A DNA stretch of 37,455 bases from contig QNCW01000002.1 of assembly GCA_003645885.1 (NCBI GenBank), forward strand, positions 1 through 37,455, given 5' to 3'. Positions 1 through 22,541 of the stretch are shown piece after piece. Both the position numbers and the translations under genes were made by a program. The notes under the pieces were generated by a model. That model searched no databases and was not told the origin of the DNA. It saw only the letters and a program-made list of their open reading frames with translations. The stretch's first letter is position 1. Every line of letters starts with the position of its first letter. The DNA is from Candidatus Latescibacterota bacterium. GTDB taxonomy: Bacteria > Latescibacterota > 4484-107 > B68-G9.

Positions 1-104
1 AAGGTAAGCTCGTGCCCCCTGGCTTGTACATTTACAGGATAGAGGTCGAGGTAGGTGAGGGGGACAGCGAAGTCGCATCTGGGACCCTGGCTGTGGTCTA
101 TTAG
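1..104 (+). CDS. 3' end of an upstream secreted protein (partial); C-terminal beta-sandwich sorting tail of T9SS/FlgD-Ig type
   Basis: Frame 3 reads GKLVPPGLYIYRIEVEVGEGDSEVASGTLAVVY followed by TAG at 102-104. The G-x-Y-x-Y-R-hydrophobic pattern resembles the terminal strands of the intact sorting tails at 15372-15641 and 17281-17541. Confidence 0.5.
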   Translation, partial: GKLVPPGLYIYRIEVEVGEGDSEVASGTLAVVY

Positions 105-594
105 TCTGCTTTGCTGCTATGCCCCTGCCATCGAGCAAGGAGGAAGGCCCGGGGAAGAACCTTACGAGGTCACGATCAAGTTCTACAAGACCTTGGAGGA
201 ATTCGAATCTCCGGGCGTCCCTCTGGCCGATGTGGGGGAGGCCGACAGGTACAGACCTGGCAGTCCCGTATGGGTCCCCGACGATGAGGTGGCCAGGCTC
301 AGGGCCAGGGGAGCCCTCGTGCCCATAGAGGGGCTGAGGGTCGTCCTGGTGGACGGGAACAGGAAGGTTCAGGGCCGCACCGATGGCTCTGGAAGGGTGA
401 GGTTCGAGCTCATCTCGGGGAGGACGTACTACATAAGGGTGTACTTCGGCACGCACGAGTGGTTCAGGAAGGTATTCCTGCTCCCCTTCTGGGTCGGGAT
501 GCTCGGGAAGGTTGAGGGTGAGGAAACCAAAAGCTCCATCGAAAGGAGCATATTCGTCTCCCCGAGCGGCGATATAAGGAGGAGGCCGTATTGA
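55..594 (+). CDS. Hypothetical secreted protein with a carboxypeptidase-regulatory-like beta-sandwich; start uncertain
   Basis: 179-aa ORF whose GTG at 55 overlaps the upstream gene, so the true start is probably further in (hydrophobic ISLLCCYAPA stretch). The segment LRVVLVDGNRKVQGRTDGSGRVRFELISGRTYYIRVY fits the CarboxypepD_reg-like pattern. Its stop TGA (592-594) overlaps the TTG start of the next gene. Confidence 0.55.
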   Translation: MRGTAKSHLGPWLWSISLLCCYAPAIEQGGRPGEEPYEVTIKFYKTLEEFESPGVPLADVGEADRYRPGSPVWVPDDEVARLRARGALVPIEGLRVVLVDGNRKVQGRTDGSGRVRFELISGRTYYIRVYFGTHEWFRKVFLLPFWVGMLGKVEGEETKSSIERSIFVSPSGDIRRRPY

Positions 595-3182
595 TCAAGC
601 TTCCCCTGCTGTTGGTCCTCTTCCTCGGAAGTCCATCCGCCCAGTTCCTCTCCAGGTCGTACTATCCCTTCTGGGACGAGGTGTACGAGAACTACGGAAG
701 GGAGGTGTACAGAGATTACCCGCTCAGGCCGGAGAGGAAGATATACGACCCGTTGGGCATATACCTTATAAAGGGGATCGATCTGGTCAGGTTCGAGGAG
801 TTCAGGACCTTGGCTCCTTTCAGGAGCTCTTCCTTGGTGAAGATGGAGGATTACGGGGAAGTGTTCGATAAGCTCGTAATAGCGGACGAAAGCTACATGG
901 GCTGGGCGAACGTGGCGATGGTCGGGAATGCGATAAGGACCAGGTTCACACAGTGCACCCTGAGCCTGGCGAGGTTCAACGGGGTGAGGTGGGACGCATC
1001 CTCAAGGAAGAACAGGTTCTCTATATTGGGCTCGAGGATATCCAACCCCCAGATAGGGGAGATGGACCCGGAGATGGTCGAGCATTTCGCACCCCTGTTC
1101 ATGGAGTTCTTCGGGACCTTCATGTTCGGCGGGCGCTGGGAGGGCACGTTCGGGGACGTGCTGGAGCTTGGTACCACATTTTTGAACCTCCACAGGGCTG
1201 ACGGGCTCAGGAGGAGGGGCTCCATAAGGGGTGTGGTTCCGAGCATCACACCGTGGATACCGGTGGTATACGTTGTGTTCAGCGATGACTCCCCGGAAGA
1301 TGGGGGCGGGGCTGAGGTCTACGACGTCCAGATCTTCGTAAACGGGGTCAGGAGGGACGACATAAAGCCCGAGGTCAGGAAGATAAGGGATGTGGTTAGG
1401 CTGAGGAAGCCTTTCATGACCCTCAGGGACATCCCCCACATCCGGAGGGACGGTCCGTGGCTCGTCAACACCCTCACGTACTCCTATATGTTCGAGCAGA
1501 AGAAGAGGAGGGGGGACGGGGGACTGTTCGCTAAGGATGGGTTTGACCCGGGACCTGAGGTCCCCCTCAGGGCGGACGGAACGGACGTGCTGGTGTTCAA
1601 GTACGAGATCCCTTCCGATGCTAAGGCCTTAAGGTTCAGAGCGTTGGTCTCAGGAGATTACTGCATAGATGTCGCATCCGGGCTGAGCTGGGCCTTCACG
1701 TGGGAGGACTGGCACAACGTGGCGAGGGCCAGGGGCAAGCCCAAGGGAGGCTCCAACCTGGGATGGGTAAGCTTCGAATATGGCTTCCCGACGGGGATGA
1801 GCCTCTACGGAGCAGATTTCAGGCTCAGGCTCGGAGGGTTCAAGATAGAGGGGGAATATTCGAACTACGAGGGGTACTTCCAGCTTCCCGTGCCAGGAGG
1901 GAAGAGGAGCACCCTGAAGGGTGGGGTGTACTTCCTCAGGGCGCTCAGGACCTCGCCGAGGTTAGATCTGGGCTTAGAGGTGTTCAGGTTCCTTCCAGGG
2001 TACACCACCTCGTTCCCCATATGGAAGGACGACAGGCCTGGGAGGGCAGGGGTGGTCAACTACGAGCTAGTGGACGACAACGACGACCAGGACGAGTGGC
2101 CGGACACCTGGGAGAACTGGGACCCCCTCGATCCCCATTACAACCCTGAGGAGCCCGGCCTTCCGTGGGAGGCCCAGATGAACCTGAGCCCCCCCGCAAG
2201 GGTGGGGATGGGGGTATATCCCGGTCTGGACGTGGACCAGGATGGGAGGCCCGACTACAGCACTTCGGAGAGCATATTCCTCAGCTACTACGTCGATCCG
2301 TTGGGCTACGTTTACGGGGACGACTTCAACAACAACGGTGTCGTGGACGTCAGGGAGGATGACAACAAGCCCGACTATCCATACGATGTTGACAGCCAGG
2401 GCGGGCACCTTTTCTTGAGGTTCAGGCCAGTTGAGGACATCGCCCTGAGGTTCGGACTGTACGACGTGAGGAGGATAGCAGGGTGCGGCAGGAACTTCGT
2501 GGGGTACGGAGAACTCGGCTACACCCGGAGGTTAAGGTTCGGAGATCTCAGGTTCAACTACATGGTCAAGAGGGTCATGGACGACATCCCGGACGATGTG
2601 TACTCGATCGGGAGGTGGTGGCTGGTGAGGCACGACCCCTTGGACATGAAGGACAGCATAGTTCACATATTCTTCCTGGACTCACACCTGAACACCATTA
2701 AGGATCTGAACATAACGAACAGGTTAAAGTTTAACTTGAACTTGAAGAGGGACGGGGGCAGGGTTACGGACGTGACGTGGGTCAGCAAGGCCGACTACAC
2801 TTTCAAGCTCGGGAGGGTCTCGATAAGGCCCATGTTGAAGTATACCTTCGGCAGGTTCAAGAGGACGGACCCTCCCAGGACCGAAGTTGGATATTCCCTC
2901 CTCCCCCTCCTCAGGGTGGATGTGCCGCTGGCGCGGAGCTCCAGGCTCAAGTTCGGGCTGAAGGGATATCCCTTCCCCTATATGTCGAGGGACCCGCTCC
3001 ATCCGGCCGAGGACCTGGATTCCAGGGGGTACGTCATCGTATTCGAGAACAGGAGCAAGTATCTGGGTTACGACGTGATCTTTCAGATCATATCCGAAAG
3101 GAGGATGGAGAGGCGTCCTGGGATGGGAAAGGTTGGGGAGAGGGATTACGCAAGGTACGAGGTGAGGGTATATGCTGAGTAG
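591..3182 (+). CDS. Large predicted outer-membrane protein, paralog A (863 aa), with Asp-rich Ca-binding-type repeats; family not recognised
   Basis: TTG start preceded by AAGGAGGAGG (577-586). Signal peptide MIKLPLLLVLFLGSPSAQF. Full-length paralogy to 3172-5817 and 6518-9382, with shared YENYGRE, IRT(R/K)FT, NG(V/I)R.D, GG(R/H)WE, VDDNDD.DE/RxPD, NNNGxxDxREDDxKPxYPYDxD, G(C/G)GRN and (K/R)FGxxG(Y/F)P motifs. The C-terminal third has an amphipathic beta-strand character. Confidence 0.85.
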   Translation: MIKLPLLLVLFLGSPSAQFLSRSYYPFWDEVYENYGREVYRDYPLRPERKIYDPLGIYLIKGIDLVRFEEFRTLAPFRSSSLVKMEDYGEVFDKLVIADESYMGWANVAMVGNAIRTRFTQCTLSLARFNGVRWDASSRKNRFSILGSRISNPQIGEMDPEMVEHFAPLFMEFFGTFMFGGRWEGTFGDVLELGTTFLNLHRADGLRRRGSIRGVVPSITPWIPVVYVVFSDDSPEDGGGAEVYDVQIFVNGVRRDDIKPEVRKIRDVVRLRKPFMTLRDIPHIRRDGPWLVNTLTYSYMFEQKKRRGDGGLFAKDGFDPGPEVPLRADGTDVLVFKYEIPSDAKALRFRALVSGDYCIDVASGLSWAFTWEDWHNVARARGKPKGGSNLGWVSFEYGFPTGMSLYGADFRLRLGGFKIEGEYSNYEGYFQLPVPGGKRSTLKGGVYFLRALRTSPRLDLGLEVFRFLPGYTTSFPIWKDDRPGRAGVVNYELVDDNDDQDEWPDTWENWDPLDPHYNPEEPGLPWEAQMNLSPPARVGMGVYPGLDVDQDGRPDYSTSESIFLSYYVDPLGYVYGDDFNNNGVVDVREDDNKPDYPYDVDSQGGHLFLRFRPVEDIALRFGLYDVRRIAGCGRNFVGYGELGYTRRLRFGDLRFNYMVKRVMDDIPDDVYSIGRWWLVRHDPLDMKDSIVHIFFLDSHLNTIKDLNITNRLKFNLNLKRDGGRVTDVTWVSKADYTFKLGRVSIRPMLKYTFGRFKRTDPPRTEVGYSLLPLLRVDVPLARSSRLKFGLKGYPFPYMSRDPLHPAEDLDSRGYVIVFENRSKYLGYDVIFQIISERRMERRPGMGKVGERDYARYEVRVYAE

Positions 3183-5817
3183 GGCCGCCCTTCTGGTGCT
3201 GCTGCCCTCTGCGGCGTTCTGTCAGCTCCTCTTCGAGCCCGGGGAGGAGTACGAGAACTACGGAAGGGAGGACTATAAGAGATATGGTAAGTCCATATTT
3301 TACAGGATATTGAATCCAGTATACGATGAGATGGGGGACTTCGTAACAAACGGTGTGGAGATATTCTCGCTGAGGGAGACGCACACCGTATATCCAAGGC
3401 CGGGAAGCAGGCTCTGGAAGGGGGAATATTTCTACAAGTACGTGAACGGGCTGGTTGTCTCCCACAACATCTTGGGCAGGAAGTACATGAGCATAGCGGT
3501 TGGGGACAACATAAGGACGAAGTTCACCCCCCTTTCCTTGGACATGGCCAACCTGAACGGTATACGCTGCGACCTGGATACAGGTCCGGACAAGTTCACC
3601 CTCGTCACATCGAGGGTCGACAGGCCCATATTCAACCTGGACGACAGCAAGACACACAACAAGGAGATACACCTCCCCAGGTACGCCACCTACCTGCTCG
3701 GGGGCCACTGGGAGAGGAGGATAGGGACCTTGACCGTAGGTGGGACTTACGTAAACCAGTTCAGGGTGGACAGCATGGTGGGGACCGAGAGGAACAGCCT
3801 GAAGGGGACCCTTCCGAAGGATGGCTATCCTGTGGCCTACTTGGTCTTGAAGCTCGCAGATGGCTCGGAACAAAGGAAGGGAGGGGCAAGGATATACGAT
3901 GTGGAGATATACATGGACGGAAAGAGGAGGGAAGTACCCGTCCTGGTGACCCAGCACGATGCGAAGGTGATAGATCTTGAATATCCGAACGGGGACAGGG
4001 GGTTCCCTAAGCCCATACCTCCCTACGTCCAGTTCATCAGGGGCGACCTGCCCACCAAGCCCTTCGGCACATTCCAGGCGGAGGGGAGCAAGTACGTGCT
4101 GTACTGGTTCGAAATGCCCGAGGACCTGGGATGCAGGTCGGTGGAGTTCAGGGTGGTAGTTTCGGGAGACTACCTGTTGAGCCTCTCCGAGGTGTACGTG
4201 GCAAACCCCTTAGCTCCGAAGACGGACCCCCTAAGGAGGTACGGGGCCACATATTTCTACGAGGTCGCTGGCGCCAAGGGGAGCCCCGAGAACTACAACG
4301 ACGTGGAGGTTGTAAGGTTCAACTACGGTAGGCAGACCAGCAACACCGTGGCCGGGCTCCATCTCAGGCTCGATTCCAAGGAGCTCTTCGTCAACGCAGA
4401 ATATAAAAGGCGCTTCGACTTCAGGCAGTTCCTGAACGGGTCCGGCGAGCACTTCCTCTCCACAGCCGATGCCTTCTACGTAAACCTCAAGAGGTATTCC
4501 CGCAAGTTCTCGTTCGGAGGCGAGCTGTTTTACATATCCCCCTTCTACAGCACGATGATATCCGTGAACGACCTTTCGTACGCAACCTCTTACCTGAGGA
4601 GCATAGACAGCCCGTTTACGGATGCCGAAATGTTCTTGAAGAACAATACATTAGAGTTCGACACCGTGGACGACAACGACGATAAGGACAGGTTCCCTGA
4701 CAAGTACTTCCTCCTCAAGAAGGCCGACAACAACGGAGTCTTCCCGGGCCAGGACGAGGACATGGACGGAAGGCCGGACGTCAACGAGAACGAGAACGAC
4801 ATCCCGGACTATCTTGAGCCCTTCCTTCTCTACGACGTCAACCCACAGGAGTTCGACTACGGCGACGACATGAACAACAACGGCATCATAGACATAAGGG
4901 AGGACGACGACAAGCCCGACTACCCGTACGATGTGGACTCAAAGGGATACCACATCTTCCTTGAGCTCGAACCAACAAAAGGACTTAAGTTTACATTGGG
5001 CCACTACGATGTCCGCCAGATCCTGGCCGGGGGTAGGAACGTTGTGAGTTACCTCAAGCTCGACTACTCTAAATACTTACCTTTCCTGGCCGACATCCAC
5101 CTCGTTAACTTCTCGAAGAGGGTGAGGGACGACATAAAGGACGATGTCTTCCAGTTCCAGCAAGGCATACCTTCTTCCTTCAATCCAGACCCGAGGTCGA
5201 GGTTCGGTGTAACGAACATAAGGACGGTCCTGGTCGAGGATAGACTTCTCATGAAGGACAGCTTCGTGAACACTTCCTACATGAAGGTCAGGTTCCTGGG
5301 TGTCAAGGGGTTGAACTTCGAGCAGAGCCTTAAGGTGGAGCTTAACAGGCAGTTCCTCGGAAGGTCCAAGAACGACATATGGAGGTGGGCCTACGTGCTC
5401 AAGGGGGATTACACGTACAGGTTCGGGAGGTTAAGCATAAGTCCGAAGTTCAAGTACATGGCTTACAGGGTACACGACCGTAAGGATGCCGTCGTGCACG
5501 CTCACGAGGCCTACTTCTTCCCGATACTGAGGGTGGACTACACGCTCACGCCGAGGACCAAGATAAAGTTCGGGGCCCAGGGCTTCCCCTTCCTGAAGGG
5601 AACGTACAGGGACTTCATAAACAGGTTCAGGGACTACACTTCCCAGGATTACATAATAATGCTGAGCAACATATCCACTTATAGGGGATACGAACTCAGC
5701 TTCAATGTCGGCTACGAGGTAAGGAAGCAGACGTATAAGGACAGGAGGAGGGCCTTCGAGGACGTGGATTACGGGTTCTTCTTCTTAAGGTTCATAGTCG
5801 GGGTCAAGGAAATATAA
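3172..5817 (+). CDS. Large predicted outer-membrane protein, paralog B (881 aa), with thrombospondin-type-3-like Asp-rich repeats
   Basis: ATG at 3172 overlaps the end of paralog A by 11 nt. Signal peptide MLSRAALLVLLPSAAFCQ. Same motif series as paralogs A and C. Acidic cassette VDDNDDKDRFPD...GQDEDMDGRPDVNENENDIPDY...DDMNNNGIIDIREDDDKPDYPYDVD at 4666-4938. Confidence 0.88.
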   Translation: MLSRAALLVLLPSAAFCQLLFEPGEEYENYGREDYKRYGKSIFYRILNPVYDEMGDFVTNGVEIFSLRETHTVYPRPGSRLWKGEYFYKYVNGLVVSHNILGRKYMSIAVGDNIRTKFTPLSLDMANLNGIRCDLDTGPDKFTLVTSRVDRPIFNLDDSKTHNKEIHLPRYATYLLGGHWERRIGTLTVGGTYVNQFRVDSMVGTERNSLKGTLPKDGYPVAYLVLKLADGSEQRKGGARIYDVEIYMDGKRREVPVLVTQHDAKVIDLEYPNGDRGFPKPIPPYVQFIRGDLPTKPFGTFQAEGSKYVLYWFEMPEDLGCRSVEFRVVVSGDYLLSLSEVYVANPLAPKTDPLRRYGATYFYEVAGAKGSPENYNDVEVVRFNYGRQTSNTVAGLHLRLDSKELFVNAEYKRRFDFRQFLNGSGEHFLSTADAFYVNLKRYSRKFSFGGELFYISPFYSTMISVNDLSYATSYLRSIDSPFTDAEMFLKNNTLEFDTVDDNDDKDRFPDKYFLLKKADNNGVFPGQDEDMDGRPDVNENENDIPDYLEPFLLYDVNPQEFDYGDDMNNNGIIDIREDDDKPDYPYDVDSKGYHIFLELEPTKGLKFTLGHYDVRQILAGGRNVVSYLKLDYSKYLPFLADIHLVNFSKRVRDDIKDDVFQFQQGIPSSFNPDPRSRFGVTNIRTVLVEDRLLMKDSFVNTSYMKVRFLGVKGLNFEQSLKVELNRQFLGRSKNDIWRWAYVLKGDYTYRFGRLSISPKFKYMAYRVHDRKDAVVHAHEAYFFPILRVDYTLTPRTKIKFGAQGFPFLKGTYRDFINRFRDYTSQDYIIMLSNISTYRGYELSFNVGYEVRKQTYKDRRRAFEDVDYGFFFLRFIVGVKEI

Positions 5818-5831
5818 GGGGGTGCTCCCCG
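5815..5831. repeat. Left arm of a perfect 17-nt inverted repeat (TAAGGGGGTGCTCCCCG)
   Basis: Exact reverse complement of 6491-6507. Contains the TAA stop of paralog B. Confidence 0.9.
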
Positions 5832-5845
5832 GGAAAGGAGGAGAG

Positions 5846-6478
5846 ATGGTCAGGCTAACGCTAGCAGGTCTGTTGGCCTTGGTCCTGGCGGGAACTGTGG
5901 CCGCCTACGAGAAGCCGGAGGGTGAGGTCCTTGTACAGAGCTGGGGCTTCGAAGCTCCTTCGAGCTGGTACCGAATATGGCCCTTCCAGTTCTTTTACTG
6001 GTGGCAGTTCGCCGACACCACCACCTTCAGGGCTGAAAGGGCCGCCCATACCGGGAAGTGGGGCCTCGTGCTCACCCATCCCTCGTGGATACCCGAGGAG
6101 CACGGGGGCACCCCGTACGCCATTTGGGGCATAAGCTACATCCCAGGCGCAAAGTACAGGGTGTCGTACTGGGCCAAGAGCGACGGGGTCATAGAGGTCC
6201 ACGGCGAGATATACTGGAGGTCGGAGCACAAGGATGGGACCTTGGTTTCCTTCGAGCCTTACAAGGGCACAGAATGGAAGCAGTTCTCGTACGAATGGAC
6301 CGCCCCGACCCTGGATAAGACCGAGGGCAAGGAGGCTTTCCTTGCGGTTTGGTTCTGGCCCAGACCAAAGCGGACGGACGGGGAGGCGTACGTGGACGAT
6401 GTCGAGGTATGGCTCATCGGGTACGAGCTGCCCGTGGATGAGATGACCTGGGGTAGGATAAAAGCTAGCTTCAAGTAA
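5846..6478 (+). CDS. Secreted carbohydrate-binding-module-like (CBM4/9/22-type beta-sandwich) protein, about 210 aa
   Basis: In-frame ATG at 5846 preceded by AGGAGG (5836-5841), preferred over the GTG at 5822 in the ORF track. Signal peptide MVRLTLAGLLALVLAGTVAAYE. Trp/Tyr-rich, with the C-terminal motif GEAYVDDVEVW typical of CBM_4_9-like modules. Confidence 0.7.
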   Translation: MVRLTLAGLLALVLAGTVAAYEKPEGEVLVQSWGFEAPSSWYRIWPFQFFYWWQFADTTTFRAERAAHTGKWGLVLTHPSWIPEEHGGTPYAIWGISYIPGAKYRVSYWAKSDGVIEVHGEIYWRSEHKDGTLVSFEPYKGTEWKQFSYEWTAPTLDKTEGKEAFLAVWFWPRPKRTDGEAYVDDVEVWLIGYELPVDEMTWGRIKASFK

Positions 6479-6490
6479 AATAGTAACTTA

Positions 6491-6507
6491 CGGGGAGCAC
6501 CCCCTTA
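6491..6507. repeat. Right arm of a perfect 17-nt inverted repeat (CGGGGAGCACCCCCTTA)
   Basis: Exact reverse complement of 5815-5831. Overlaps the 14-nt palindrome CCCCCTTAAGGGGG (6500-6513), which also carries the SD of paralog C. Confidence 0.9.
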
Positions 6508-6517
6508 AGGGGGCAAC

Positions 6518-9382: not shown

Positions 9383-9392
9383 TGGAGGGGAG

Positions 9393-12599: not shown

Positions 12600-12600
12600 T

Positions 12601-15644: not shown

Positions 15645-15654
15645 AGGAGGGCAA

Positions 15655-17544
15655 ATGTTGTCCTTGATGCTCGTGGTCGTCGGCCTGCTCGAAGCTGGCA
15701 CCTACTATGTTTCCACCTCGGGGGACGACTCTTGGCCCGGCACATCGTCCTCCCCTTGGAGGCACATAAGCTACGGGGTGGGCAAGCTGGGCCCGGGTGA
15801 TACTCTGGTCGTCCTGGCCGGGAACTACGGCGACGAACAGGTGAACGTAAACTTCGGTGGAAGGCCGGATGCCCCGATAGTGATAAGGGGGGAGCCCCCG
15901 GGGAGTGTGACGATGGAGGGCAGGGGCGGGGGGACGGGGTTCAGCATAACGGGAAGCTACATAGTCGTAGAGGGGATAAGGTTCAGGAACTACTCCTCCG
16001 GGGTGGGCATAGCGGACCCATCCTCGTACGTAACCGTGAGGAGGTGCATATTCGAGGACAACAACTCCTGCGGCGTAATAGCATGGGGGACATCCTACAG
16101 CATTTGGGACTTACACGACATCCTCGTGGAGGAGTGCCAGTTCTACGATCACGCAAACACACAGGACTACGGAATATCTTTCAACTATGCAGCGAAGGTC
16201 GTGGCCAGGAACAACTACTTCTTCGGCGACCACCACCAAACCCTCTCGTTCAAGAGGAAGGTGTACTATGGGCTTGCTAAGGACAACGTCTTCGAGGGCT
16301 TCCTGTATACGGCCCTGTACCTTGGCCAGAACCTCGACACCTCGGAGGAGGACAACAGGAGCAGGTACCTCATAGCCGAGGGCAACGTCTTCCGGCCCGC
16401 TGAGGGACATAGGGCCAAGAGGCCCATATGGGTGGCAAACGTGGATTGGGCCGTCGTGAGGGACAACTTCATGGAGGGAAGGGACGATGTGGACGGAGGA
16501 TGGGGGGAGGGCATAGGCTTAGGGGACCACGAGGATGGGTATCTCCCAGCAAACCCGGACCATGTCACGATATATAGGAACGTTATGAGGAGGATAGGTG
16601 GAACCACGACCAACCCGGGGATAAGGGTCTACCACAGGTGCGGGGATGTGAAGGTGTTCAACAACACATTTGCTAACTGCGCTTACTCCTTTGGCTTCGA
16701 GATGGAGGAGACCATACTCTTCCTCAACAACATATTTTACAACTCAAGGAACGGGACCGTGAGGGAGGGCACTGGAAGGAACTCGATATACGAGCACAAC
16801 ATCTTCTATCCGATGTGGAAGGGTATGGGGCCGACTGACATATCCGAGGACCCTCTTATGGTAGGTCCCTTCGATCCCTTGGAGGTGGGGGGGGAAGATC
16901 CGAAGTTCGTGCCCGACTTCACCAGGGCCTTCGCATGCAGGCTCAGGGAGGGTTCTCCGTGCATAGATGCTGGGAGGTTCCTGACGTGGACCGTGGGTTC
17001 GGGGAGCGGGACCCAGGTCAGGGTGCAGGATGCGAGCTTCTTCACCGACGGGTTCGGGATGGCCGAGGGGGACATCGTCAAGGTGGGGGACGAGGAGCCG
17101 GCCAGGGTCGTAGGCGTAGACTACGACATGAACTTGATAACCCTCGACCGCCCGATATCCTGGGAGGACGGCGAGGGGGTGAGCATGGCGTACTTCGGTT
17201 CGGCTCCGGACATAGGCGCATACGAGTACGAGCCCCGTCCTTGGGTGGAGGAGGATGCCATCGAGGTGGTGGGGCCGAAGGTGGTGGTCTTCCCCAACCC
17301 CTCGTGCGGGAGGGTGTTCGTGGAGTGTCCCGTCTCGAGCGTCGGGAGGGTGAGGATCGTAGTGTACGACATCTTGGGGAGGACCGTCAGAAAGCTTGCG
17401 GACGACTTCGTGGATTCCCCTGGGACGTACAGGACCTTCTGGGACGGGACCGACGGGGATGGCAGGCCCACCTCGCCAGGAGTGTACGTGATTAGGTTCG
17501 AGGTAGGTGGGCTCAGTTCGACGAGGAAGCTCGTGAGGTTCTGA
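15655..17544 (+). CDS. Secreted right-handed parallel beta-helix protein with T9SS C-terminal sorting domain (629 aa)
   Basis: GAGGAGG upstream. Signal peptide MLSLMLVVVGLLEAGT. YYVSTSGDDSWPGTSSSPWRHISYGV...GDTLVVLAGNY is a typical beta-helix cap. EDPLMVGP...REGSPCIDAG is the end motif. The tail FPNPSCGRVFVECPVSS..VRIVVYDILGRTVRKL...TFWDGTDGDGRPTSPGVYVIRF spans 17281-17541. Confidence 0.85.
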   Translation: MLSLMLVVVGLLEAGTYYVSTSGDDSWPGTSSSPWRHISYGVGKLGPGDTLVVLAGNYGDEQVNVNFGGRPDAPIVIRGEPPGSVTMEGRGGGTGFSITGSYIVVEGIRFRNYSSGVGIADPSSYVTVRRCIFEDNNSCGVIAWGTSYSIWDLHDILVEECQFYDHANTQDYGISFNYAAKVVARNNYFFGDHHQTLSFKRKVYYGLAKDNVFEGFLYTALYLGQNLDTSEEDNRSRYLIAEGNVFRPAEGHRAKRPIWVANVDWAVVRDNFMEGRDDVDGGWGEGIGLGDHEDGYLPANPDHVTIYRNVMRRIGGTTTNPGIRVYHRCGDVKVFNNTFANCAYSFGFEMEETILFLNNIFYNSRNGTVREGTGRNSIYEHNIFYPMWKGMGPTDISEDPLMVGPFDPLEVGGEDPKFVPDFTRAFACRLREGSPCIDAGRFLTWTVGSGSGTQVRVQDASFFTDGFGMAEGDIVKVGDEEPARVVGVDYDMNLITLDRPISWEDGEGVSMAYFGSAPDIGAYEYEPRPWVEEDAIEVVGPKVVVFPNPSCGRVFVECPVSSVGRVRIVVYDILGRTVRKLADDFVDSPGTYRTFWDGTDGDGRPTSPGVYVIRFEVGGLSSTRKLVRF

Positions 17545-17554
17545 AGGAGGTGTC

Positions 17555-17914
17555 ATGAGGGCGTTGTCCCTCCTTGGACTTGTGCTTTTGCTCTCGTGCG
17601 GCGACGTGCCGGAGCTCCCCCGACCGTTCCATAGAGGAAGGCTTCCTGCTCCCTCGGAGCTAAATCTGGCTGTGAGGGACAGCATCTTGGAGGTATCCTG
17701 GGAAATGCCGGAGCAGGCGGACGTCAGGAAGTTCTTGGTCTCGGTCTCGGACACATCGGGGTTCTCGGTCGAGATGTTTGTGGACACGACGTACTTCGAG
17801 GTCGTCGTCCCGGGAGGTTCGGTGTACTACGTGCAGGTGATGCCGGTGGGCGCCGATCTCTTCGTCGGGCCGGCGGCCACGGACTCCGTGTCGTTACCTT
17901 ATCCTTTAAGATGA
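17555..17914 (+). CDS. Small lipoprotein with fibronectin-type-III-like domain (119 aa)
   Basis: AAGGAGG upstream. Lipobox LLLSCG in MRALSLLGLVLLLSCGD. APSELNLAVRDSILEVSWEMPEQADVRKFLVSVSD...YYVQVMPV resembles an FN3 strand pattern. Confidence 0.7.
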   Translation: MRALSLLGLVLLLSCGDVPELPRPFHRGRLPAPSELNLAVRDSILEVSWEMPEQADVRKFLVSVSDTSGFSVEMFVDTTYFEVVVPGGSVYYVQVMPVGADLFVGPAATDSVSLPYPLR

Positions 17915-17923
17915 GGAGGAGAC

Positions 17924-18658
17924 ATGTGGGAGATAATAAAGTCCGGCGGACCGATAATGTGGCCACTGTTGGCGTGCTCCGTCCTGGCGCTCGCATTCAT
18001 AATCGAGAGGCTCATAGTCCTCTACAAGATTCCTAAGGAGAGGGAAGCTCAGGAGGAGCTCGAGAGGGTGGAGAGGATACTGGCCGAGCAGGGGGAGGAG
18101 GCTGCAGCAACGTACTGCTCGAAGAGGAGGGGACCTCTCAACTACATATTCTCCGCCCTGATGAAGCGCTTCGACAGGCTGATGATAGAAAGGAGGGAGC
18201 TTCGGGACACGAGGCAGCAGATAGTCGAGCTGGCCAAGTCGGCGGGCGCCGGGGAAATGGGGGAGTTCATGGTGGTCCAGAAGGAGCTGAGCGACATAAA
18301 GGACGAACTTATCTTCGAGGTAGAGGAGGCAGGAAGGGCGTACCTCGGGAGGAACCTGACCCTCCTGGGAACTATAGGGGTGATATCCCCACTTTTAGGG
18401 CTCCTGGGGACCATAGTGGGCATGATAGTGGCCTTCAGGGCGATAGCCATAGCAGGAACGGGAGACCCTAAGGTCGTGGCAGGAGGCATATCCCAGGCAC
18501 TTGTTACGACTGCCACTGGACTGACGATAGCTATACCGACCATAGTGGCACACAGGTTCCTCGCCAGGAAGGCGGAGACCAGCCTCGAGAGGTTGGAGGT
18601 CTACGGACACGCCTTCGTAAACTCCCTCATAATGTCAGCATTTAAGGTGGAGGTATGA
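17924..18658 (+). CDS. exbB: MotA/TolQ/ExbB-family proton channel (244 aa)
   Basis: N-terminus MWEIIKSGGPIMWPLLACSVLALAFIIERL and C-terminal LTLLGTIGVISPLLGLLGTIVGMIVAF...GISQALVTTATGLTIAIPTIVAHRFL are the canonical ExbB/TolQ three-TM signatures. The size fits ExbB/TolQ rather than MotA or ZorA. Confidence 0.92.
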   Translation: MWEIIKSGGPIMWPLLACSVLALAFIIERLIVLYKIPKEREAQEELERVERILAEQGEEAAATYCSKRRGPLNYIFSALMKRFDRLMIERRELRDTRQQIVELAKSAGAGEMGEFMVVQKELSDIKDELIFEVEEAGRAYLGRNLTLLGTIGVISPLLGLLGTIVGMIVAFRAIAIAGTGDPKVVAGGISQALVTTATGLTIAIPTIVAHRFLARKAETSLERLEVYGHAFVNSLIMSAFKVEV

Positions 18659-19071
18659 GGAGAAGGAGGGCACCAAGGGGGTTCGTGTCGGGCTGGGACG
18701 TTGACCTGACACCCCTTATAGATTGCGTCTTCCAGCTTTTGATATTCTTTATGGTGACCACGGTCTTCATCCACACCAGGGGGATAGACGTGGACCTCCC
18801 GTCCGCCTCGAAGGCGACCGAAAGCGTGGAGAAGAGGGATATAAACATAATAATAGAGGCCGACGGCAGGATAGAGATAGGGGGCGAGGAGGTCGAGGAG
18901 GGAGAACTTGTGGAAAGGATAAAGAGGGCGATGGTGGAAAACAAGAACGAAAACATCATAATCCAGGCCGATCCCGAGGTGGTCCAGGAGAGGGTCGTGG
19001 AGGTCATGGATGCTGCCAGGATCGCAGGGGTCAAAGGTATAGCTTTTGCAAGGGTGAGGCCGGAGGGTTAG
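18655..19071 (+). CDS. exbD: ExbD/TolR-family protein, copy 1 (138 aa)
   Basis: ATGA overlap with exbB. DLTPLIDCVFQLLIFFMVTT TM segment with the conserved membrane Asp, followed by a periplasmic domain (INIIIEADGRIEIGG...NIIIQADPEV....VVEVMDAARIAG). Confidence 0.92.
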   Translation: MRRRRAPRGFVSGWDVDLTPLIDCVFQLLIFFMVTTVFIHTRGIDVDLPSASKATESVEKRDINIIIEADGRIEIGGEEVEEGELVERIKRAMVENKNENIIIQADPEVVQERVVEVMDAARIAGVKGIAFARVRPEG

Positions 19072-19482
19072 ATGGCGAGGCCCAAAAGGTCGCAGGACCA
19101 GGACGATATAAACATAAACTTGACCCCCCTCATAGACTGTGTGTTCCTGCTTTTGGTCTTCTTCATGGTCACCACCGTCTTCAAGGAACCCTTCAGGCTG
19201 AGGGTCCTGCTCCCCGAGGCCTCGAGGGCAGGGGTGGTCGAGGAGAAGAAGCTCGTGCTCACCATAGATGCCGATGGGAGGATGGATGTCAACGGGAAGC
19301 TCGTGACCATGGAGGGGTTGGAGACAACGCTCGAGGAGGAGAAGGAGAGGACGAGGTCCCTTACCCTCATCATAAGGACCGACAAGCGCACCAAGCATGG
19401 GTTCGTCCTCGACGCAATGGAGATAGCAAAGAGGATGGGGGTCAAAAAGATAGTCCTTGCGACGGAGAAGAAGGAAGGTTGA
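19072..19482 (+). CDS. exbD: ExbD/TolR-family protein, copy 2 (136 aa)
   Basis: ATG immediately follows the TAG of copy 1. NLTPLIDCVFLLLVFFMVTTVF TM segment with conserved Asp. LVLTIDADGRMDVNG...LIIRTDKRTKHGFVLDAMEIAKRMG periplasmic domain. Confidence 0.92.
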   Translation: MARPKRSQDQDDININLTPLIDCVFLLLVFFMVTTVFKEPFRLRVLLPEASRAGVVEEKKLVLTIDADGRMDVNGKLVTMEGLETTLEEEKERTRSLTLIIRTDKRTKHGFVLDAMEIAKRMGVKKIVLATEKKEG

Positions 19483-19483
19483 G

Positions 19484-20683
19484 ATGAGGGAGGACAGGTT
19501 CAAAGGACCTGCAGATGTCATAGAGCTTAAGAAGCTCTACAGGAGGAAATACATCTACATGGGCCTGGCCATTGCCGTGGCGTTTCACATCGGGCTCGGC
19601 GCGTACTTCTTCTCGACAAGGAGGAAGAAGAGGGTGGCCAAGCCCCCGGTGGTAGAGCTTATAGTTAGGAAGCCCAGGATGACCAAGCCCTTCGAGTTCA
19701 AAAAGAGGAGGGTCCCCAAGAGGGTGATGATGAGGAAGGTTGTATCTGCTAAGCCTATGTTGATAAAGACGATAACTAAGAAGATAGTCAGCCCGGACCT
19801 GTTCGGCACGGTAGCTACCTTCGGGTACCACGTGGAAAGCGGGGCGGAGATGGGGTTTGAGGTGGTCCAACCCGAAGTTAGACCCGCGAGCATAGCCACC
19901 TCAAAGGAGCCAGAGAAGAGGATAAGCATGGAGGAGGAACTTCTGGACCTCGAGGCCCTGGACACGGGGAAGTACAGGGGACTGGTGATCCAGGACCCGA
20001 GGAACAAGAAGAACATAAAGGGCTTCGTCTACTTAGCAAGATTAAGGGGAAACACCCTATACCCTGCCGTTCCGGGCGCCCTACCCCAGCTCGTAAGGTT
20101 CATAAACGAAAACTCGGGCATAAGGGCCAAGGTGGCCGAGGACGTGTACCTGGATTCCAAGGAGCTGTTCAGGTGCCCGTTCGTATACCTGACCGCCAGG
20201 GAACCCTTCGAGGCGACCAGGAAGGAGGTGGAGAACCTCAGGGAGTACCTCAAGTCCGGAGGCTTCGTCTTCGTGGACAACGTATATCCAAAGGAGGAGT
20301 ACAGCCCTTCCGAGGCCAGCTTGAGGAAGCTTATAAGGGACGCCCTCGGCAGGGAAGCTCGCTTCGAGATGATACCGAACGACCATCCACTTTACCATTG
20401 CTTCTACGACTTCGATGGGCCTCCGGTGGGTGCCGAGGTCGAGGCCGAGGTGTACATGGGAGGAAGGCTGGAGGTGGTCAAGCTCGTGCGACACCTGGAG
20501 GGCATATTCCTGGATGGACGGCTCGCTGTGGTGTTCTCCGACAAGGGATATGGGATAAAGTGGGAAAGGGGCATAGATAACGAAGTACAGCTTAGGATGG
20601 GGATGAACCTCGTCGTATACGCCCTGACACAGGAAGGCTCCATAGCTCAGAAGCAGATAGAATTTTACACTGCGAGGAGGTGA
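19484..20683 (+). CDS. Inner-membrane-anchored protein in the TonB position: TonB-like N-terminal TM (with His) + basic linker + DUF4159-like C-terminal domain (399 aa)
   Basis: ATG at 19484, 1 nt after the exbD stop (the ORF-track GTG at 19457 would overlap). TM segment YIYMGLAIAVAFHIGLGAYFF, then a Lys/Arg/Pro-rich segment RRKKRVAKPPVVELIVRKPRMTKPFEFKKRRVPKRVMMRK. The C-terminal half has LFRCPFVYLTAREPFEATRKEVENLREYLKSGGFVFVDN...IPNDHPLYHCFYDF...DGRLAVVFSDKGYGIKWE, which fits my recollection of DUF4159 (PF13709). I recognised no TonB_C motif. Confidence 0.65.
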   Translation: MREDRFKGPADVIELKKLYRRKYIYMGLAIAVAFHIGLGAYFFSTRRKKRVAKPPVVELIVRKPRMTKPFEFKKRRVPKRVMMRKVVSAKPMLIKTITKKIVSPDLFGTVATFGYHVESGAEMGFEVVQPEVRPASIATSKEPEKRISMEEELLDLEALDTGKYRGLVIQDPRNKKNIKGFVYLARLRGNTLYPAVPGALPQLVRFINENSGIRAKVAEDVYLDSKELFRCPFVYLTAREPFEATRKEVENLREYLKSGGFVFVDNVYPKEEYSPSEASLRKLIRDALGREARFEMIPNDHPLYHCFYDFDGPPVGAEVEAEVYMGGRLEVVKLVRHLEGIFLDGRLAVVFSDKGYGIKWERGIDNEVQLRMGMNLVVYALTQEGSIAQKQIEFYTARR

Positions 20684-20685
20684 GC

Positions 20686-21408
20686 ATGAGGTTCCTGTAT
20701 CCCCTGCTGCTCTGTCTCGGATGTTCCCTGGTCTTTCCCCCGAGGATAGAATACCTCTCCCTCCTCATCCCCGAGGTAGAGGGAGAGAGGTACTCGGTGA
20801 AGGAGGACGGGACGGTCTGTTACAACTTCGACGGCCTGAGGATAGAGGTCAAGTACATGACGGACCGGGAACTCAACGAGATGTTCCCTGAGGAGTCCAG
20901 CAGGGGTAAGTACTCCATAAATCCTTATACATATGGAAACTATGTGGACCCAAGCTTGGGCTACACCCCCAACAGGTTCACAGTGTTCAGGGTCTGGGTG
21001 TACAACTATACGTTCCCCAAGGTGATGCTCCCGCCCCTCGACGCCATACTTCTCACCGACAGGGGGGAGACCCTCTTCGCCTACGGAATATCTTCGGATT
21101 CCCCCCACAACAGCTTCGAGAGGTACTACAGGGCGAGGATGGGCCAGAGCGGGAACGAGCTTTACAGGTTCGAGATGAGGATGGGCATAGTAAGGAGCCA
21201 CAACTACGAAGAGGATGTCAAGATATTCAAGGGGGAGAACTACGGAGGTTTCATAGTGTTCGACCCTCTGGCCCCCGACGTCGAGAGGGTCAGGCTCGTG
21301 CTTAGGAACTTCGTGCTCAAGTTCGATGCATTTGACAACCCTTTGGAGACTACGGACATAAGCTTCGACTTCACGAGGAAGGTGGAGAAGAGGGTGCTCG
21401 AAAGGTAG
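20686..21408 (+). CDS. Hypothetical lipoprotein (240 aa)
   Basis: ATG at 20686 preceded by GGAGG (20676-20680). Lipobox LCLGCS in MRFLYPLLLCLGCSLV. No recognisable family. Last gene before the 81-nt G-rich/T-run spacer. Confidence 0.7.
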   Translation: MRFLYPLLLCLGCSLVFPPRIEYLSLLIPEVEGERYSVKEDGTVCYNFDGLRIEVKYMTDRELNEMFPEESSRGKYSINPYTYGNYVDPSLGYTPNRFTVFRVWVYNYTFPKVMLPPLDAILLTDRGETLFAYGISSDSPHNSFERYYRARMGQSGNELYRFEMRMGIVRSHNYEEDVKIFKGENYGGFIVFDPLAPDVERVRLVLRNFVLKFDAFDNPLETTDISFDFTRKVEKRVLER

Positions 21409-21421: not shown

Positions 21422-21469
21422 GGTCTGATCGGGGAGGGGTGGGGTCGGGGAGGCATCAGGTCTTTTTTT
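21422..21469 (+). terminator. Possible intrinsic terminator of the envelope operon: imperfect stem enclosing the G4 motif, then T7
   Basis: GGTCTGAT (21422-21429) can pair with ATCAGGTC (21455-21462) using 6 Watson-Crick and 2 G-U pairs. It is followed directly by TTTTTTT (21463-21469). The 25-nt loop is atypically long. Confidence 0.35.
21431..21450 (+). other. Canonical G-quadruplex motif GGGGAGGGGTGGGGTCGGGG in an intergenic spacer
   Basis: Four G4 runs separated by loops of 1, 1 and 2 nt, read directly from the sequence. Non-coding, 23 nt after the TAG at 21406-21408. Confidence 0.7.
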
Positions 21470-21489
21470 ATCCCAAAACGGGAGGTCAC

Positions 21490-22536: not shown

Positions 22537-22541
22537 TCCTC

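Follow-up and report, generated by a model that had tools for sequence, protein, structure and literature searches.

The Agl/Glt core complex contains one TolQ-like and two TolR-like subunits together with a secreted TPR protein of more than 1000 aa, and its defining authors report that the Glt core complex alone does not drive motility (PMC3169522). In Fibrobacter succinogenes, the genes Fisuc_1892-1897, assigned as GltC, GltD, AglR, AglS, and GltG homologs, encode in order a TPR protein, a 1292-aa TPR protein, ExbB, ExbD, ExbD, and a TonB-family protein (PMC3169522 Table S3). Expression of this cluster rises on cellulose, and cellulases co-purify with its TPR protein (PMC6851124).

The window analyzed here, a 37,455-nt stretch from Candidatus Latescibacterota bacterium (assembly GCA_003645885.1, contig QNCW01000002.1, positions 1-37,455, forward strand), encodes a like combination of one TolQ-like and two TolR-like subunits with a secreted TPR protein of over 1000 aa. 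Compared by gene order, it also shares with the Fibrobacter Glt core complex the succession TPR giant, ExbB, ExbD, ExbD, transducer, with a DUF4159 anchor at the place of TonB/GltG. The window carries a single, 5'-truncated copy of an envelope cassette that occurs in multiple copies. We propose with moderate confidence that the cassette uses motor-driven force transduction, its likely task being the handling or import of surface polysaccharide. It is probably related, as a new system, to the Ton and Myxococcus Glt machines for force transduction. The literature on DUF4159, DUF5683, and ExbB with PorP yielded no published description of it, in keeping with the proposal, made in a sequence-only reading of this DNA, that the system is undescribed.

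Organization of the locus

Domains were assigned by Pfam and NCBIfam profile searches of the window proteins. The ORF list and junction sequences resolve 15 closely packed + strand genes within 55-21408:

55-594, +, g01, small secreted protein, 179 aa, lineage-specific, signal peptide
591-3182, +, OMa, giant outer-membrane beta-barrel, orthogroup 1, 863 aa, paralog of OMb and OMc
3172-5817, +, OMb, giant outer-membrane beta-barrel, orthogroup 2, 881 aa, paralog of OMa and OMc
5822-6478, +, g04, small secreted protein, 218 aa, lineage-specific, signal peptide
6518-9382, +, OMc, giant outer-membrane beta-barrel, orthogroup 3, 954 aa, AlphaFold2 model
9393-12599, +, periplasmic TPR giant, 1068 aa, many TPR families matched
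12601-13089, +, small membrane protein, 162 aa, DUF5683 (Pfam, E 2e-9)
13083-15644, +, T9SS cargo with LamG, CarboxypepD_reg, right-handed beta-helix, and type-A C-terminal sorting domain (Pfam, TIGR04183)
15655-17544, +, T9SS cargo with beta-helix (chondroitinase B / NosD-like) and type-A C-terminal sorting domain (Pfam, TIGR04183)
17555-17914, +, small lipoprotein, 119 aa, lipobox LLSC
17924-18658, +, ExbB/TolQ-like proton-channel subunit, 244 aa, PF01618 (MotA_ExbB), E 1e-26
18655-19071, +, ExbD/TolR-like subunit 1, 138 aa, PF02472, E 9e-28
19072-19482, +, ExbD/TolR-like subunit 2, 136 aa, PF02472, E 2e-31
19484-20683, +, inner-membrane-anchored DUF4159 protein, 399 aa, PF13709, E 2e-34
20680-21408, +, g15, conserved lipoprotein, short form, 242 aa, lipobox

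The sequence-only reading had described this tight + strand run correctly but counted 16 genes in it; the candidate sixteenth, a GFO oxidoreductase at 21439, lies 30 nt beyond, outside the block's end at 21408. The junctions that it quoted are all present, namely TTGA at 591-594, an 11-nt overlap at 3172-3182, ATGGTAA at 13083-13089, ATGA at 18655-18658, abutting TAG/ATG at 19069-19074, and an ATG 1 nt past TGA at 19480-19486. The remaining intergenic gaps are all 39 nt or less, and GGAGG precedes many of the start codons. An N-terminal signal peptide, lipobox, or transmembrane segment is seen in 15 of 15 translations, so the block is envelope-directed throughout, as proposed, and the proposed parts list (ExbB, two ExbDs, DUF4159 anchor, 1068-aa TPR protein, three paralogous giants, and two T9SS-tagged beta-helix proteins) is likewise right. 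The cassette is truncated at the 5' end of the window; the operon begins further upstream on the source contig, which carries four additional T9SS-cargo genes there, with discoidin domains among the encoded surface proteins.

Pfam and NCBIfam detect no TonB_C, Plug, TonB_dep_Rec, TolA, TolB, Pal, or OmpA domain anywhere in the window. The suggestion that the motor lacks its known partners in cis holds for this copy; in the family as a whole, TonB-type domains are not missing but occur in sister copies.

Conservation across genomes

More than 100 loci share the gene set. They are spread over several, mostly uncultured phyla (Latescibacterota, Gemmatimonadota, Ignavibacteria/Kryptoniota, Bacteroidota MAGs, Zixibacteria, and KSB1), all sister loci being drawn from MAGs or single-cell genomes with rough ORF calling. 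Among 77 loci seeded with the barrel, the TPR giant is found in 50, g15 in 48, the anchor in 45, and ExbB in 22; the 53 anchor-seeded loci with full flanks contain the barrel in 51 cases, g15 in 49, the TPR giant (about 1040-1100 aa) in 48, and ExbB in 26. Over 90% of the full-length loci combine barrel, TPR giant, DUF4159 anchor, and g15. This core comprises one to three barrels of about 900-1000 aa without a curated model, a TPR protein of about 1050-1100 aa, the anchor, and g15. The subtypes differ in how the genes are ordered and oriented yet retain the set, which argues for selection on the gene set and not for inherited adjacency. The phyla above belong to the FCB superphylum, within which the cassette is conserved, and the adjacency of its genes is not chance; the synteny that the sequence-only reading had asked about is strong across phyla. 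Genomes carry three or more copies (3-7), diverged from one another and each with its own variable cargo.

About half of the copies add one TolQ/ExbB-like and two distinct TolR/ExbD-like genes. Since the motor genes lie within 10 kb in only about half of copies (the 26 of 53 above), the motor may be optional or common to several copies. In NCBIfam the motor proteins come closest to the TolQ and TolR models, TolQ being the top match of ExbB at 90.7 bits against a cut-off of 221. Both ExbD subunits keep the transmembrane Asp, in subunit 1 within TPLIDCVF, and form an ordered pair in sister loci, subunit 1 being a conserved, distinct paralog that comes first and subunit 2 coming second.

The giant barrels

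OMa, OMb, and OMc are mutually paralogous at 33-37% identity and match no Pfam or NCBIfam family. They correspond to positions 1, 2, and 3 of three giant orthogroups whose order is fixed across loci, with best matches at the same position in 182/182, 182/182, and 172/182 comparisons. OMa scores highest against position-1 giants elsewhere, and the best match of a position-2 giant is the position-2 giant of another locus in all 182 comparisons. The AlphaFold2 model of OMc (pLDDT 80, pTM 0.84) has about 28-30 long strands, and residues 573-670 contain almost invariant Asp/Asn-rich motifs. Foldseek returns MtrB and Deinococcus SlpA as best PDB matches (TM-scores about 0.25), with further weaker matches to LptD and TonB-dependent transporters, all generic large barrels with TM-scores of 0.31 or less. 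No profile detects a plug domain or TonB box in the barrels. A TonB-dependent transporter has 22 strands and a plug. The barrels were considered as TonB-dependent receptors and rejected on the grounds of strand number, nearest folds, and lack of Plug or TonB_dep_Rec matches, so that profile searches and AlphaFold2/Foldseek alike failed to refute the claim that the giants are not ordinary receptors of this type.

Candidate transducer and periplasmic components

The gene for the DUF4159 protein lies immediately 3' of ExbD subunit 2, the usual place of TonB, and three sister loci (L027, L049, and L072) likewise have the anchor at precisely this position. An alternative TTG start at 19457 would give 408 aa. 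As anticipated, the protein lacks a TonB_C domain, the domain found being DUF4159, and its sole PDB relative is 4i66, an uncharacterized protein. By gene position and three-part architecture it resembles TonB/TolA, but the His of the TonB/TolA SHLS motif is mostly absent, occurring in just 40 of 116 anchors, and its presence is unrelated to motor adjacency. An almost invariant post-helix strand fits the 'motor box' concept (PMC12204202). We regard the DUF4159 anchor as a candidate force transducer.

The g15 lipoprotein adjoins the anchor in most loci, and its lipobox Gly-Cys is almost invariant. Pfam and NCBIfam find no family match and no TonB_C domain in the g15 of the window; a long form, 63% identical, was modeled by AlphaFold2 (pLDDT 89) with a beta-sandwich N-domain. 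A C-terminal TonB_C domain is present in 46 of 117 sister copies (about 40%). This sister C-domain exceeds the cut-offs of two models, scoring 59.1 bits against 40 for NF033768, the AgmX/PglI C-terminal model, and 34.6 bits against 27.1 for TIGR01352; it matches the GltG C-terminus, and its model superposes on TonB C-terminal domains at 2-3 A. In Bacteroidota and Ignavibacteria, g15 is fused to a second DUF4159 domain. Adjacency together with the DUF4159 and TonB_C fusions indicates that g15 and the anchor belong together. The sequence-only reading had seen in the locus an independent assembly without visible sequence homology to Agl/Glt. Both statements are too strong: the 46 sister g15 proteins pass the AgmX/PglI (GltJ/GltG) and TonB_C models, and the g15 C-domain and the gene order of the Fibrobacter core complex argue against independent assembly.

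Matches of the TPR giant include repeated YbgF/CpoB-like and BamD-like units (Pfam, NCBIfam), with eight YbgF/CpoB-like stretches by NCBIfam, and a scaffold is its probable function. In many loci the DUF5683 protein recurs between the TPR giant and the anchor, and many loci of Latescibacterota and Gemmatimonadota have a homolog of the 119-aa lipoprotein immediately ahead of the anchor.

T9SS cargo and proposed role

The two cargo proteins of the window score 30.8 bits (13083-15644) and 30.0 bits (15655-17544) against the TIGR04183 cut-off of 23. Accessory gene content, including both of these genes, varies from locus to locus and comprises F5/8 type C, LamG, beta-helix, GHL10, and CBM9-like genes. 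In 57 of 77 loci the cargo genes take a fixed place immediately 5' of the barrels, and T9SS-sorted surface proteins bearing discoidin or CBM-type domains lie ahead of most copies. Besides the accessory genes, GH130, ROK, and GH20 genes downstream in the window point to carbohydrates, but sister loci do not share this catabolic set. An additional protein of about 300 aa, found in some loci, weakly matches FlgT_M, a domain resembling the TolB N-domain.

In the mechanism that we propose, an ExbB pentamer around an ExbD1/ExbD2 heterodimer would convert the proton-motive force into movement. The DUF4159 protein would stand in for TonB, as its gene position and TonB/TolA-like architecture suggest, and would with g15 relay force across the periplasm. 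The TPR giant would serve as scaffold, and the three barrels, which may form a hetero-oligomer, would hold or operate the carbohydrate-binding proteins and enzymes that the T9SS delivers. The most likely role, and the least certain part of this proposal, is an energized process at the cell surface by which polysaccharide is captured, handled, or imported. Because genomes carry multiple copies with carbohydrate-binding cargo, polymer handling or uptake fits better than a single motility organelle. If this role is true, the cassette would correspond in function to SusCD/TonB loci and be related to the cellulose-induced Fibrobacter Glt core complex.

Alternative explanations

It is possible, though unlikely, that the motor instead moves a T9SS-anchored adhesin or surface polymer in Glt/Nfs-type surface transport, resulting in gliding or surface-layer spreading and not import. 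The combination of subunits shared with the Agl/Glt core complex and the GltG-like C-domain of sister-locus g15 point this way, as does a surface protein with a type-B-like sorting domain adjoining the PorP/PorV-like barrel that is additionally present in Bacteroidota and Ignavibacteria, an arrangement like that of SprB with SprF. The sorting domain, however, scores 23-25 bits against an NCBIfam cut-off of 35, homologs of GltA, B, H, K, F, I, and J did not turn up, and gliding is unreported in these uncultured lineages. The reported inability of the Glt core complex to drive motility alone and the three or more paralogous copies per genome with differing enzyme-like cargo also weigh against it.

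An improbable alternative is that barrels, TPR giant, DUF4159 protein, and g15 form a passive surface complex that displays or secretes T9SS cargo, with ExbB and ExbD, as frequent neighbors, serving ordinary TonB-dependent uptake elsewhere. Such a complex would accommodate the copies without nearby motor genes and the poorly conserved SHLS-type His. Against it, the motor recurs beside the core in at least four arrangements in several phyla, either inserted directly between TPR giant and anchor or adjoining the TPR giant in divergent orientation. In the loci examined, no TonB-type protein with both membrane anchor and TonB_C follows the ExbD genes, and the anchor sits where TonB would.

Still less probable is a Tol-Pal-type function in envelope integrity or tethering, in which the outer membrane would be stabilized or remodeled by the TolQ/TolR-like subunits, the CpoB-like TPR giant, and barrels of SlpA type present in abundance, the T9SS cargo genes being mere neighbors. 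The TolQ and TolR models nearest to the motor, the YbgF/CpoB-like stretches, and the weak FlgT_M protein agree with this function, as do weak matches of two homologs of the giants (P0009 and P0011) to the SlpA barrel model, SlpA also being second in the fold search. Yet all Tol matches fall far under curated cut-offs, Pfam and NCBIfam find no Pal, TolB, OmpA, or SLH domains, the cargo genes keep a fixed place upstream of the barrels, and several diverged copies with variable secreted enzymes are unexpected for a housekeeping system.

That ExbB-ExbD-ExbD energize three highly divergent TonB-dependent receptors in an ordinary Ton uptake operon is very improbable, for although a few TonB-dependent transporters appear among the weak fold matches (E about 2e-4, TM-score <0.2), neither the three giants nor 57 aligned homologs match Plug, TonB_dep_Rec, or SusC, the modeled barrel departs from the receptor fold, and the window contains no TonB.

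Lineage-specific genes

For g01 and g04, earlier termed beta-sandwich accessory proteins, the Pfam hints are weak only: the sole match of g01 is to CarboxypepD_reg (E 0.004, under cut-off), and g04 weakly matches CBM_4_9 (E 0.013). No homologs of g01 were found in sister loci by tblastn, and none of g04 in any sister locus. A perfect 17-nt inverted repeat flanks g04, at 5815-5831 and 6491-6507.

A compact envelope gene block with an ExbB/ExbD motor

The plus-strand genes run unbroken from position 55 to position 21408 in the ORF listing of the window, and we refer to this block as the cassette. Each junction quoted in the sequence-only reading is present in the sequence: TTGA at 591-594, an 11-nt overlap at 3172-3182, ATGGTAA at 13083-13089, ATGA at 18655-18658, TAG abutting ATG at 19069-19074, and TGA-N-ATG at 19480-19486. 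The other intergenic gaps are 39 nt or less, and GGAGG precedes many of the starts. ORFs, junctions, and Pfam and NCBIfam domain calls thus bear out the block as a whole, including its tight packing; only the count of sixteen consecutive genes must be corrected, as 15 lie within 55-21408 and the would-be sixteenth, a GFO-type oxidoreductase with its start at 21439, falls beyond the end given for the block. The following features were located.

Features of the cassette
55-594, + strand: g01
591-3182, + strand: first outer-membrane giant (OMa), predicted barrel
3172-5817, + strand: second giant (OMb), predicted barrel
5822-6478, + strand: g04
6518-9382, + strand: third giant (OMc), predicted barrel
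9393-12599, + strand: TPR giant, 1068 aa (Pfam, NCBIfam)
12601-13089, + strand: DUF5683 membrane protein (Pfam)
13083-15644, + strand: beta-helix T9SS cargo; type-A tail passes the TIGR04183 cut-off
15655-17544, + strand: beta-helix T9SS cargo; type-A tail passes the TIGR04183 cut-off
17924-18658, + strand: ExbB (Pfam PF01618, E 1e-26)
18655-19071, + strand: ExbD 1 (PF02472, E 9e-28); transmembrane Asp present
19072-19482, + strand: ExbD 2 (PF02472, E 2e-31); transmembrane Asp present
19484-20683, + strand: DUF4159 anchor (Pfam); one N-terminal transmembrane helix
20680-21408, + strand: g15, lipoprotein

Pfam and NCBIfam find no TonB_C, Plug, TonB_dep_Rec, TolA, TolB, Pal or OmpA anywhere in the window, and place neither the giants nor g15, g01, g04 and a 119-aa lipoprotein in a curated family. 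None of the sister loci contains a homolog of g01 or g04. Between the second and third giant genes, the lineage-specific 218-aa g04 is flanked by a perfect inverted repeat of 17 nt (TAAGGGGGTGCTCCCCG / CGGGGAGCACCCCCTTA, at 5815-5831 and 6491-6507). The 13-nt core of this repeat is unique within the window, and the pair may be the trace of an insertion or form a long-range RNA stem.

The giants constitute a family of large outer-membrane barrels

The three giants (863, 881, and 954 aa) are paralogs sharing 33-37% identity. An AlphaFold2 model of OMc, computed with 57 homologs, is nearly all beta and contains ~28-30 long strands (pLDDT 80, pTM 0.84). The giants are not TonB-dependent receptors: Plug, TonB_dep_Rec and SusC models from Pfam and NCBIfam match none of the three, and the profile of 57 homologs, searched against PDB sequences, returned nothing meaningful and no TonB-dependent transporter.

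A Foldseek search of the PDB with the OMc model gave MtrB and Deinococcus SlpA as best matches (E ~1e-7, TM-scores 0.23-0.31), followed by lower-scoring porins, LptD, and TonB-dependent transporters. As these are generic large barrels at low TM-scores, no specific fold family was assigned. The giant homologs P0009 and P0011 also match Pfam SlpA_C weakly, and because SlpA acts as a trimer, a trimer of the three giant paralogs is conceivable. The giants nevertheless lack the SLH domain, coiled coil, and cytochrome partners of SlpA and MtrB, and at TM-scores this low the likeness may reflect nothing beyond shared barrel size.

Where three giants are consecutive, each position finds its best match at the same position elsewhere (182/182, 182/182, and 172/182 for positions 1, 2, and 3), and OMa, OMb, and OMc map to these positions in order. 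The triplication is therefore old and its order fixed, an arrangement that would fit a hetero-oligomer of the giants. Among 1.84 billion cluster representatives, 943 belong to the family at E 1e-10 or better. The giants carry near-invariant Asp/Asn-rich motifs (DDNDDxD, DxDxDGxPD, and NNNGxxDxxEDDxKPxYPYD) where little secondary structure is predicted, at ~8234-8527 in OMc (residues 573-670) and at equivalent places in OMa and OMb. By their sequence, these motifs resemble calcium-binding loops. The N-terminus of the giants is disordered yet conserved, with a Y-x-N-Y motif.

The gene set recurs across phyla in shuffled order

Searching genomes with a profile built from the three giants gave >559 stretches of DNA; the 76 loci retained from these (77 with L001, the locus of P0009) belong to Latescibacterota, Gemmatimonadota, Ignavibacteria, Bacteroidota, Zixibacteria, and KSB1. 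In tblastn searches of these 77 loci, many of them on short contigs, the window proteins detected the TPR giant in 50, g15 in 48, the anchor in 45, and ExbB in 22. Seeding with the anchor instead gave 80 loci as an independent set, with a barrel in 69, the TPR giant in 68, g15 in 67, and ExbB in 38; in the 53 of these with full 10-kb flanks, our own gene calls give 51, 48, 49, and 26, respectively. Adjacency of these genes in the window is thus more than chance, as had been proposed, since the set recurs in sister loci of several phyla.

Gene order varies by subtype: the motor follows g15 in some, separates the TPR giant from the anchor in others, and elsewhere lies upstream of the TPR giant in divergent orientation. 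Because the gene set is kept while its order is shuffled, there is good evidence that the cassette is a functional unit. The lower counts of ExbB would suit a passive display complex that the motor merely neighbours, and such a complex is possible.

Some genomes hold several copies: OZ244561.1 and OZ252098.1 contain three anchor loci each, the former with at least seven barrel loci, and Candidatus Latescibacter anaerobius contains five anchor loci. A third genome scan for a cultured host, seeded with Bacteroidota-type giants, yielded only MAGs.

Several variants deserve mention. Some giant genes, in L001 and L065-L077, stand alone or beside discoidin/CHU_C, CBM9-like, or DUF6785/DUF6784 membrane proteins, with no TPR giant, anchor, g15 or motor; the barrel family is therefore used outside the cassette as well. 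Loci with short-form g15 (L008-L012, L018, and L120-L155) often encode one more secreted protein between g15 and ExbB, ~300 aa long and weakly matched by FlgT_M; this gene is absent from the window. Finally, L053 and L072 (KSB1, Zhuqueibacterota) encode two tandem DUF4159 anchors of ~410-430 aa after an ExbD gene.

The anchor and its lipoprotein partner g15

The anchor comprises a short cytoplasmic N-terminus, one transmembrane helix, a conserved segment, a linker of ~100 residues, and the DUF4159 domain, and is in this predicted three-part layout like TonB and TolA. Alignments of 39 and 116 anchors reveal a near-invariant segment after the helix, P-x4-[LF]-[IV]-[IV]-R-K-P-R-x-T-K-x-F, and the conserved strand is placed like the 'motor box' of TonB/TolA (PMC12204202). 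When the anchor was checked for a TonB C-terminal domain, Pfam returned DUF4159 (PF13709) only, and the anchor profile matched a single PDB entry, the uncharacterized protein 4i66, even at E up to 1. A His of the SHLS motif type occurs in the window anchor (AVAFHIGL) and in 40 of the 116 anchors overall, without link to motor adjacency, and was rejected as a family feature.

In most loci g15 adjoins the anchor. It takes three forms: the short form of the window, a form of ~400 aa with a C-terminal TonB_C (46 of 117 copies), and a form of ~500 aa ending in DUF4159 itself (Bacteroidota, Ignavibacteria). This fusion and the constant adjacency suggest that anchor and g15 work together. The TonB_C of sister g15 proteins passes Pfam and matches TonB C-terminal domains in the PDB both by sequence (E 5e-5) and by fold (rmsd 2-3 A); it also passes the AgmX/PglI model NF033768 (59.1 bits, cut-off 40) and matches the C-terminus of GltG. 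A fold search with the N-terminal domain of g15 gave MPT63 and YjhA-like beta-sandwich matches (E ~4e-3) that are too weak to inform on function.

Secreted cargo continues upstream of the window

Clustering of the ORFs of all loci with a GC3 filter revealed two more conserved genes immediately upstream of the barrels. The product of the first (~660 aa; 57 of 77 loci) combines a discoidin (F5/8 type C) domain with a CHU_C/type-B-like T9SS tail, and that of the second (~640 aa) ends in a type-A tail. The type-B tail of the discoidin proteins passes Pfam CHU_C in some cases (36.7 and 29.9 bits; cut-off 27) and scores under the cut-off of TIGR04131 (type B). Loci of Bacteroidota, Ignavibacteria, and KSB1 have a ~310-aa barrel of the PorP/PorV family between the discoidin protein and a single giant.

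Conserved cargo genes of this kind also lie on the source contig upstream of the window (103 kb, ERZ27227322; also GCA_003644735.1). There, four T9SS-cargo genes precede the window (L158, 1227-9514), three with discoidin domains and with type-A and type-B-like tails mixed; the last of them, just before 55-594, encodes a 654-aa discoidin and CHU_C protein. As the cargo genes continue upstream, the cassette is cut at the 5' end of the window, and these four genes move the operon start back from position 1 by 8 kb or more. When 97 accessory genes were pooled and scanned with Pfam, the matches were to CBM9-like, FG-GAP/ASPIC, extra TPR, and DUF6785/6784 proteins, a mixed picture on which a single enzymatic theme was rejected.

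Relation to known transduction machines

Few machines are known to couple the proton-motive force of the inner membrane to the outer membrane, namely Ton, Tol-Pal, Agl/Glt, and the T9SS motor GldLM, and each is mechanistically important. Predicted non-TonB transducers of the vWA class combine a transmembrane helix, a motor box, and a vWA domain (Williams-Jones et al. 2025, PMC12204202), in an operon context described mainly for the PVC group (PMC12204202). [quoted passage not shown] In contrast to the vWA class, that C-terminal domain is DUF4159 (PF13709; 4i66), with no sequence match to vWA, and an SHLS-type His is found in only about a third of anchors. The cassette further differs in having a lipoprotein as obligate partner, a defined family of outer-membrane partners, and T9SS cargo, and in occurring in the FCB superphylum. 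Given the shared operon logic and the DUF4159 protein that takes the transducer's place in the window as well as in L027, L049, and L072, we class the cassette as a new variant of transducing machine outside any named system.

The Agl/Glt core complex of Myxococcus xanthus consists of AglR, AglQ, and AglS with GltD, GltE, GltG, and GltC (PMC3169522), encoded by a TolQ-like gene, two TolR-like genes, and genes for the 1191-aa TPR protein GltD, GltE, GltC, and the TonB-like GltG (Luciano et al. 2011, PMC3169522). According to the same study, this unit is also conserved beyond the Myxococcales, in a role not yet known: copies exist in Gammaproteobacteria, some polysaccharide degraders have several, and Fibrobacter succinogenes has it too (PMC3169522). 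The Fibrobacter cluster, Fisuc_1892-1897 (FSU_2397-2403), runs in the order TPR, 1292-aa TPR, ExbB, ExbD, ExbD, TonB-family (PMC3169522); growth on cellulose upregulates it, and its TPR protein is recovered together with cellulases on purification (Raut et al. 2019, PMC6851124).

Like this complex, the cassette contains one TolQ-like and two different TolR-like genes, with the ExbD paralogs in fixed order among sister loci; a secreted TPR protein of >1000 aa directly adjoining the motor; a membrane-anchored partner after the ExbD pair; several copies in some genomes; and, in sister loci, a TonB_C of the AgmX/PglI (GltJ/GltG) subtype. In Fibrobacter, the corresponding cluster is tied to polysaccharide degradation. 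By size, signal peptide, and gene position, the TPR giant is a candidate counterpart of GltD. With such likenesses, surface transport of the Glt/Nfs kind is a possible function of the cassette. The cassette differs from the complex in that the membrane-anchored partner carries DUF4159 rather than FHA and TonB_C, and TonB_C, where present, resides on the lipoprotein g15 and not on a transmembrane protein. The cassette adds one to three ~30-strand barrels, DUF5683, small lipoproteins, and T9SS cargo. We identified no smaller TPR proteins of the GltE or GltC type in the cassette, no GltG/GltJ-type transmembrane protein with an AgmX/PglI-type TonB_C in the window, and, among the window's Pfam matches, neither OmpA-like proteins nor autotransporter beta-domains.

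The sequence-only reading had seen in the cassette a motor-to-surface apparatus parallel to these machines in composition, without visible sequence homology to Glt. The latter statement fails for the family as a whole, since the TonB_C of sister g15 proteins passes the AgmX/PglI model; the apparatus itself is favoured by the checks of giants, anchor, and synteny, so that this interpretation is supported in part.

A Tol-Pal-like envelope role is likewise possible. The TPR giant scores 301 bits with TIGR02795 (CpoB/YbgF), as eight separate stretches over its 1068 aa, and therefore as a generic repeat type rather than an equivalog, and the motor proteins stay under the Tol equivalog cut-offs (TolQ, 90.7 bits, cut-off 221; TolR, 73.6 bits, cut-off 127).

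An ordinary operon for a TonB-dependent transporter is effectively excluded. The cassette does share with Ton/SusCD loci an ExbB/ExbD-type motor, many paralogous loci per genome, TonB_C in some sister loci, and large barrels encoded beside surface carbohydrate-binding proteins and glycan-active enzymes, but it has no plug, TonB box, 22-strand barrel or SusD, its surface partners are T9SS-sorted rather than lipoproteins, and its core includes a giant TPR protein and a DUF4159 anchor. The window motor proteins reach neither the ExbB nor the ExbD equivalog cut-off of NCBIfam, and membrane-anchored TonB (PF03544, TIGR01352) has no match in the window.

Proposed mechanism and role

Our analysis shows a conserved envelope gene set with predicted locations and, at the level of domains, links to TonB/Glt-type transduction. 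In the mechanism we propose, force would be generated by ExbB5-ExbD1/ExbD2, pass via the anchor and g15 along the TPR scaffold, and reach the barrels and their T9SS-delivered surface partners.

We favour the handling or import of surface polysaccharide as the most likely role, because several diverged copies exist per genome, because the conserved surface partner is a discoidin-domain protein, and because the variable accessories are carbohydrate-related (LamG, pectate-lyase-like beta-helices, GHL10, CBM9-like). The GH130, ROK, and GH20 genes downstream in the window and the Fibrobacter precedent point the same way. Latescibacterota and Gemmatimonadota are linked to polysaccharide turnover in sediments and soils, for Latescibacteria by genome analysis (PMC4454575). 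A cassette present in multiple copies in both groups could explain how these uncultured organisms take up or handle polymers.

A more specific form of the polysaccharide role, which we put forward tentatively and consider rather unlikely, is that the cassette represents an unrecognised class of energised outer-membrane transporter, an FCB 'utilisome' made of a barrel hetero-oligomer, T9SS caps, the motor, and a split non-TonB transducer. Three ~30-strand barrels would form the hetero-oligomer, capped by T9SS-delivered carbohydrate-binding proteins, and the ExbB/ExbD motor would open or drive them via the anchor and g15 along the giant TPR scaffold. If true, the task of TonB-dependent SusCD systems would have been solved twice, independently, and the cassette would be an evolutionary bridge to the Myxococcus Glt/Nfs machines.

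Literature searches on DUF4159, on DUF5683, on ExbB/ExbD with PorP/SprF, and on Latescibacteria with T9SS or ExbB turned up no account of the system. The cassette is a real and widespread system, for which we found no description, composed largely of unannotated families. What is gained is a well-delimited, widely conserved parts list that includes the barrel family (~940 representatives, no Pfam model), g15, DUF4159, and DUF5683, and that puts a non-TonB domain, DUF4159, in TonB's position. The 'core complex of unknown function' behind Myxococcus gliding thereby gains a broader family and testable outer-membrane partners.

Genes downstream of the cassette

Directly downstream on the + strand, 21439-24724 encodes a GFO/IDH/MocA oxidoreductase, a GH130 mannoside phosphorylase, and a ROK-family regulator/kinase, and a GH20 hexosaminidase follows further downstream at 28031-30460 (+ strand). 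Together these genes look like a glycan-catabolism block; they are not kept beside the cassette in sister loci. Three tandem paralogs (471, 432, and 411 aa) at 33294-37243 each match the N-terminal domain of neutral/alkaline ceramidase, with scores from below threshold to modest. In a 932-aa protein at 24645-27443, a spermine/spermidine-synthase domain (residues 536-679) precedes TPR repeats at the C-terminus, and a homologous 738-aa ORF lies near the cassette in the sister locus L058.
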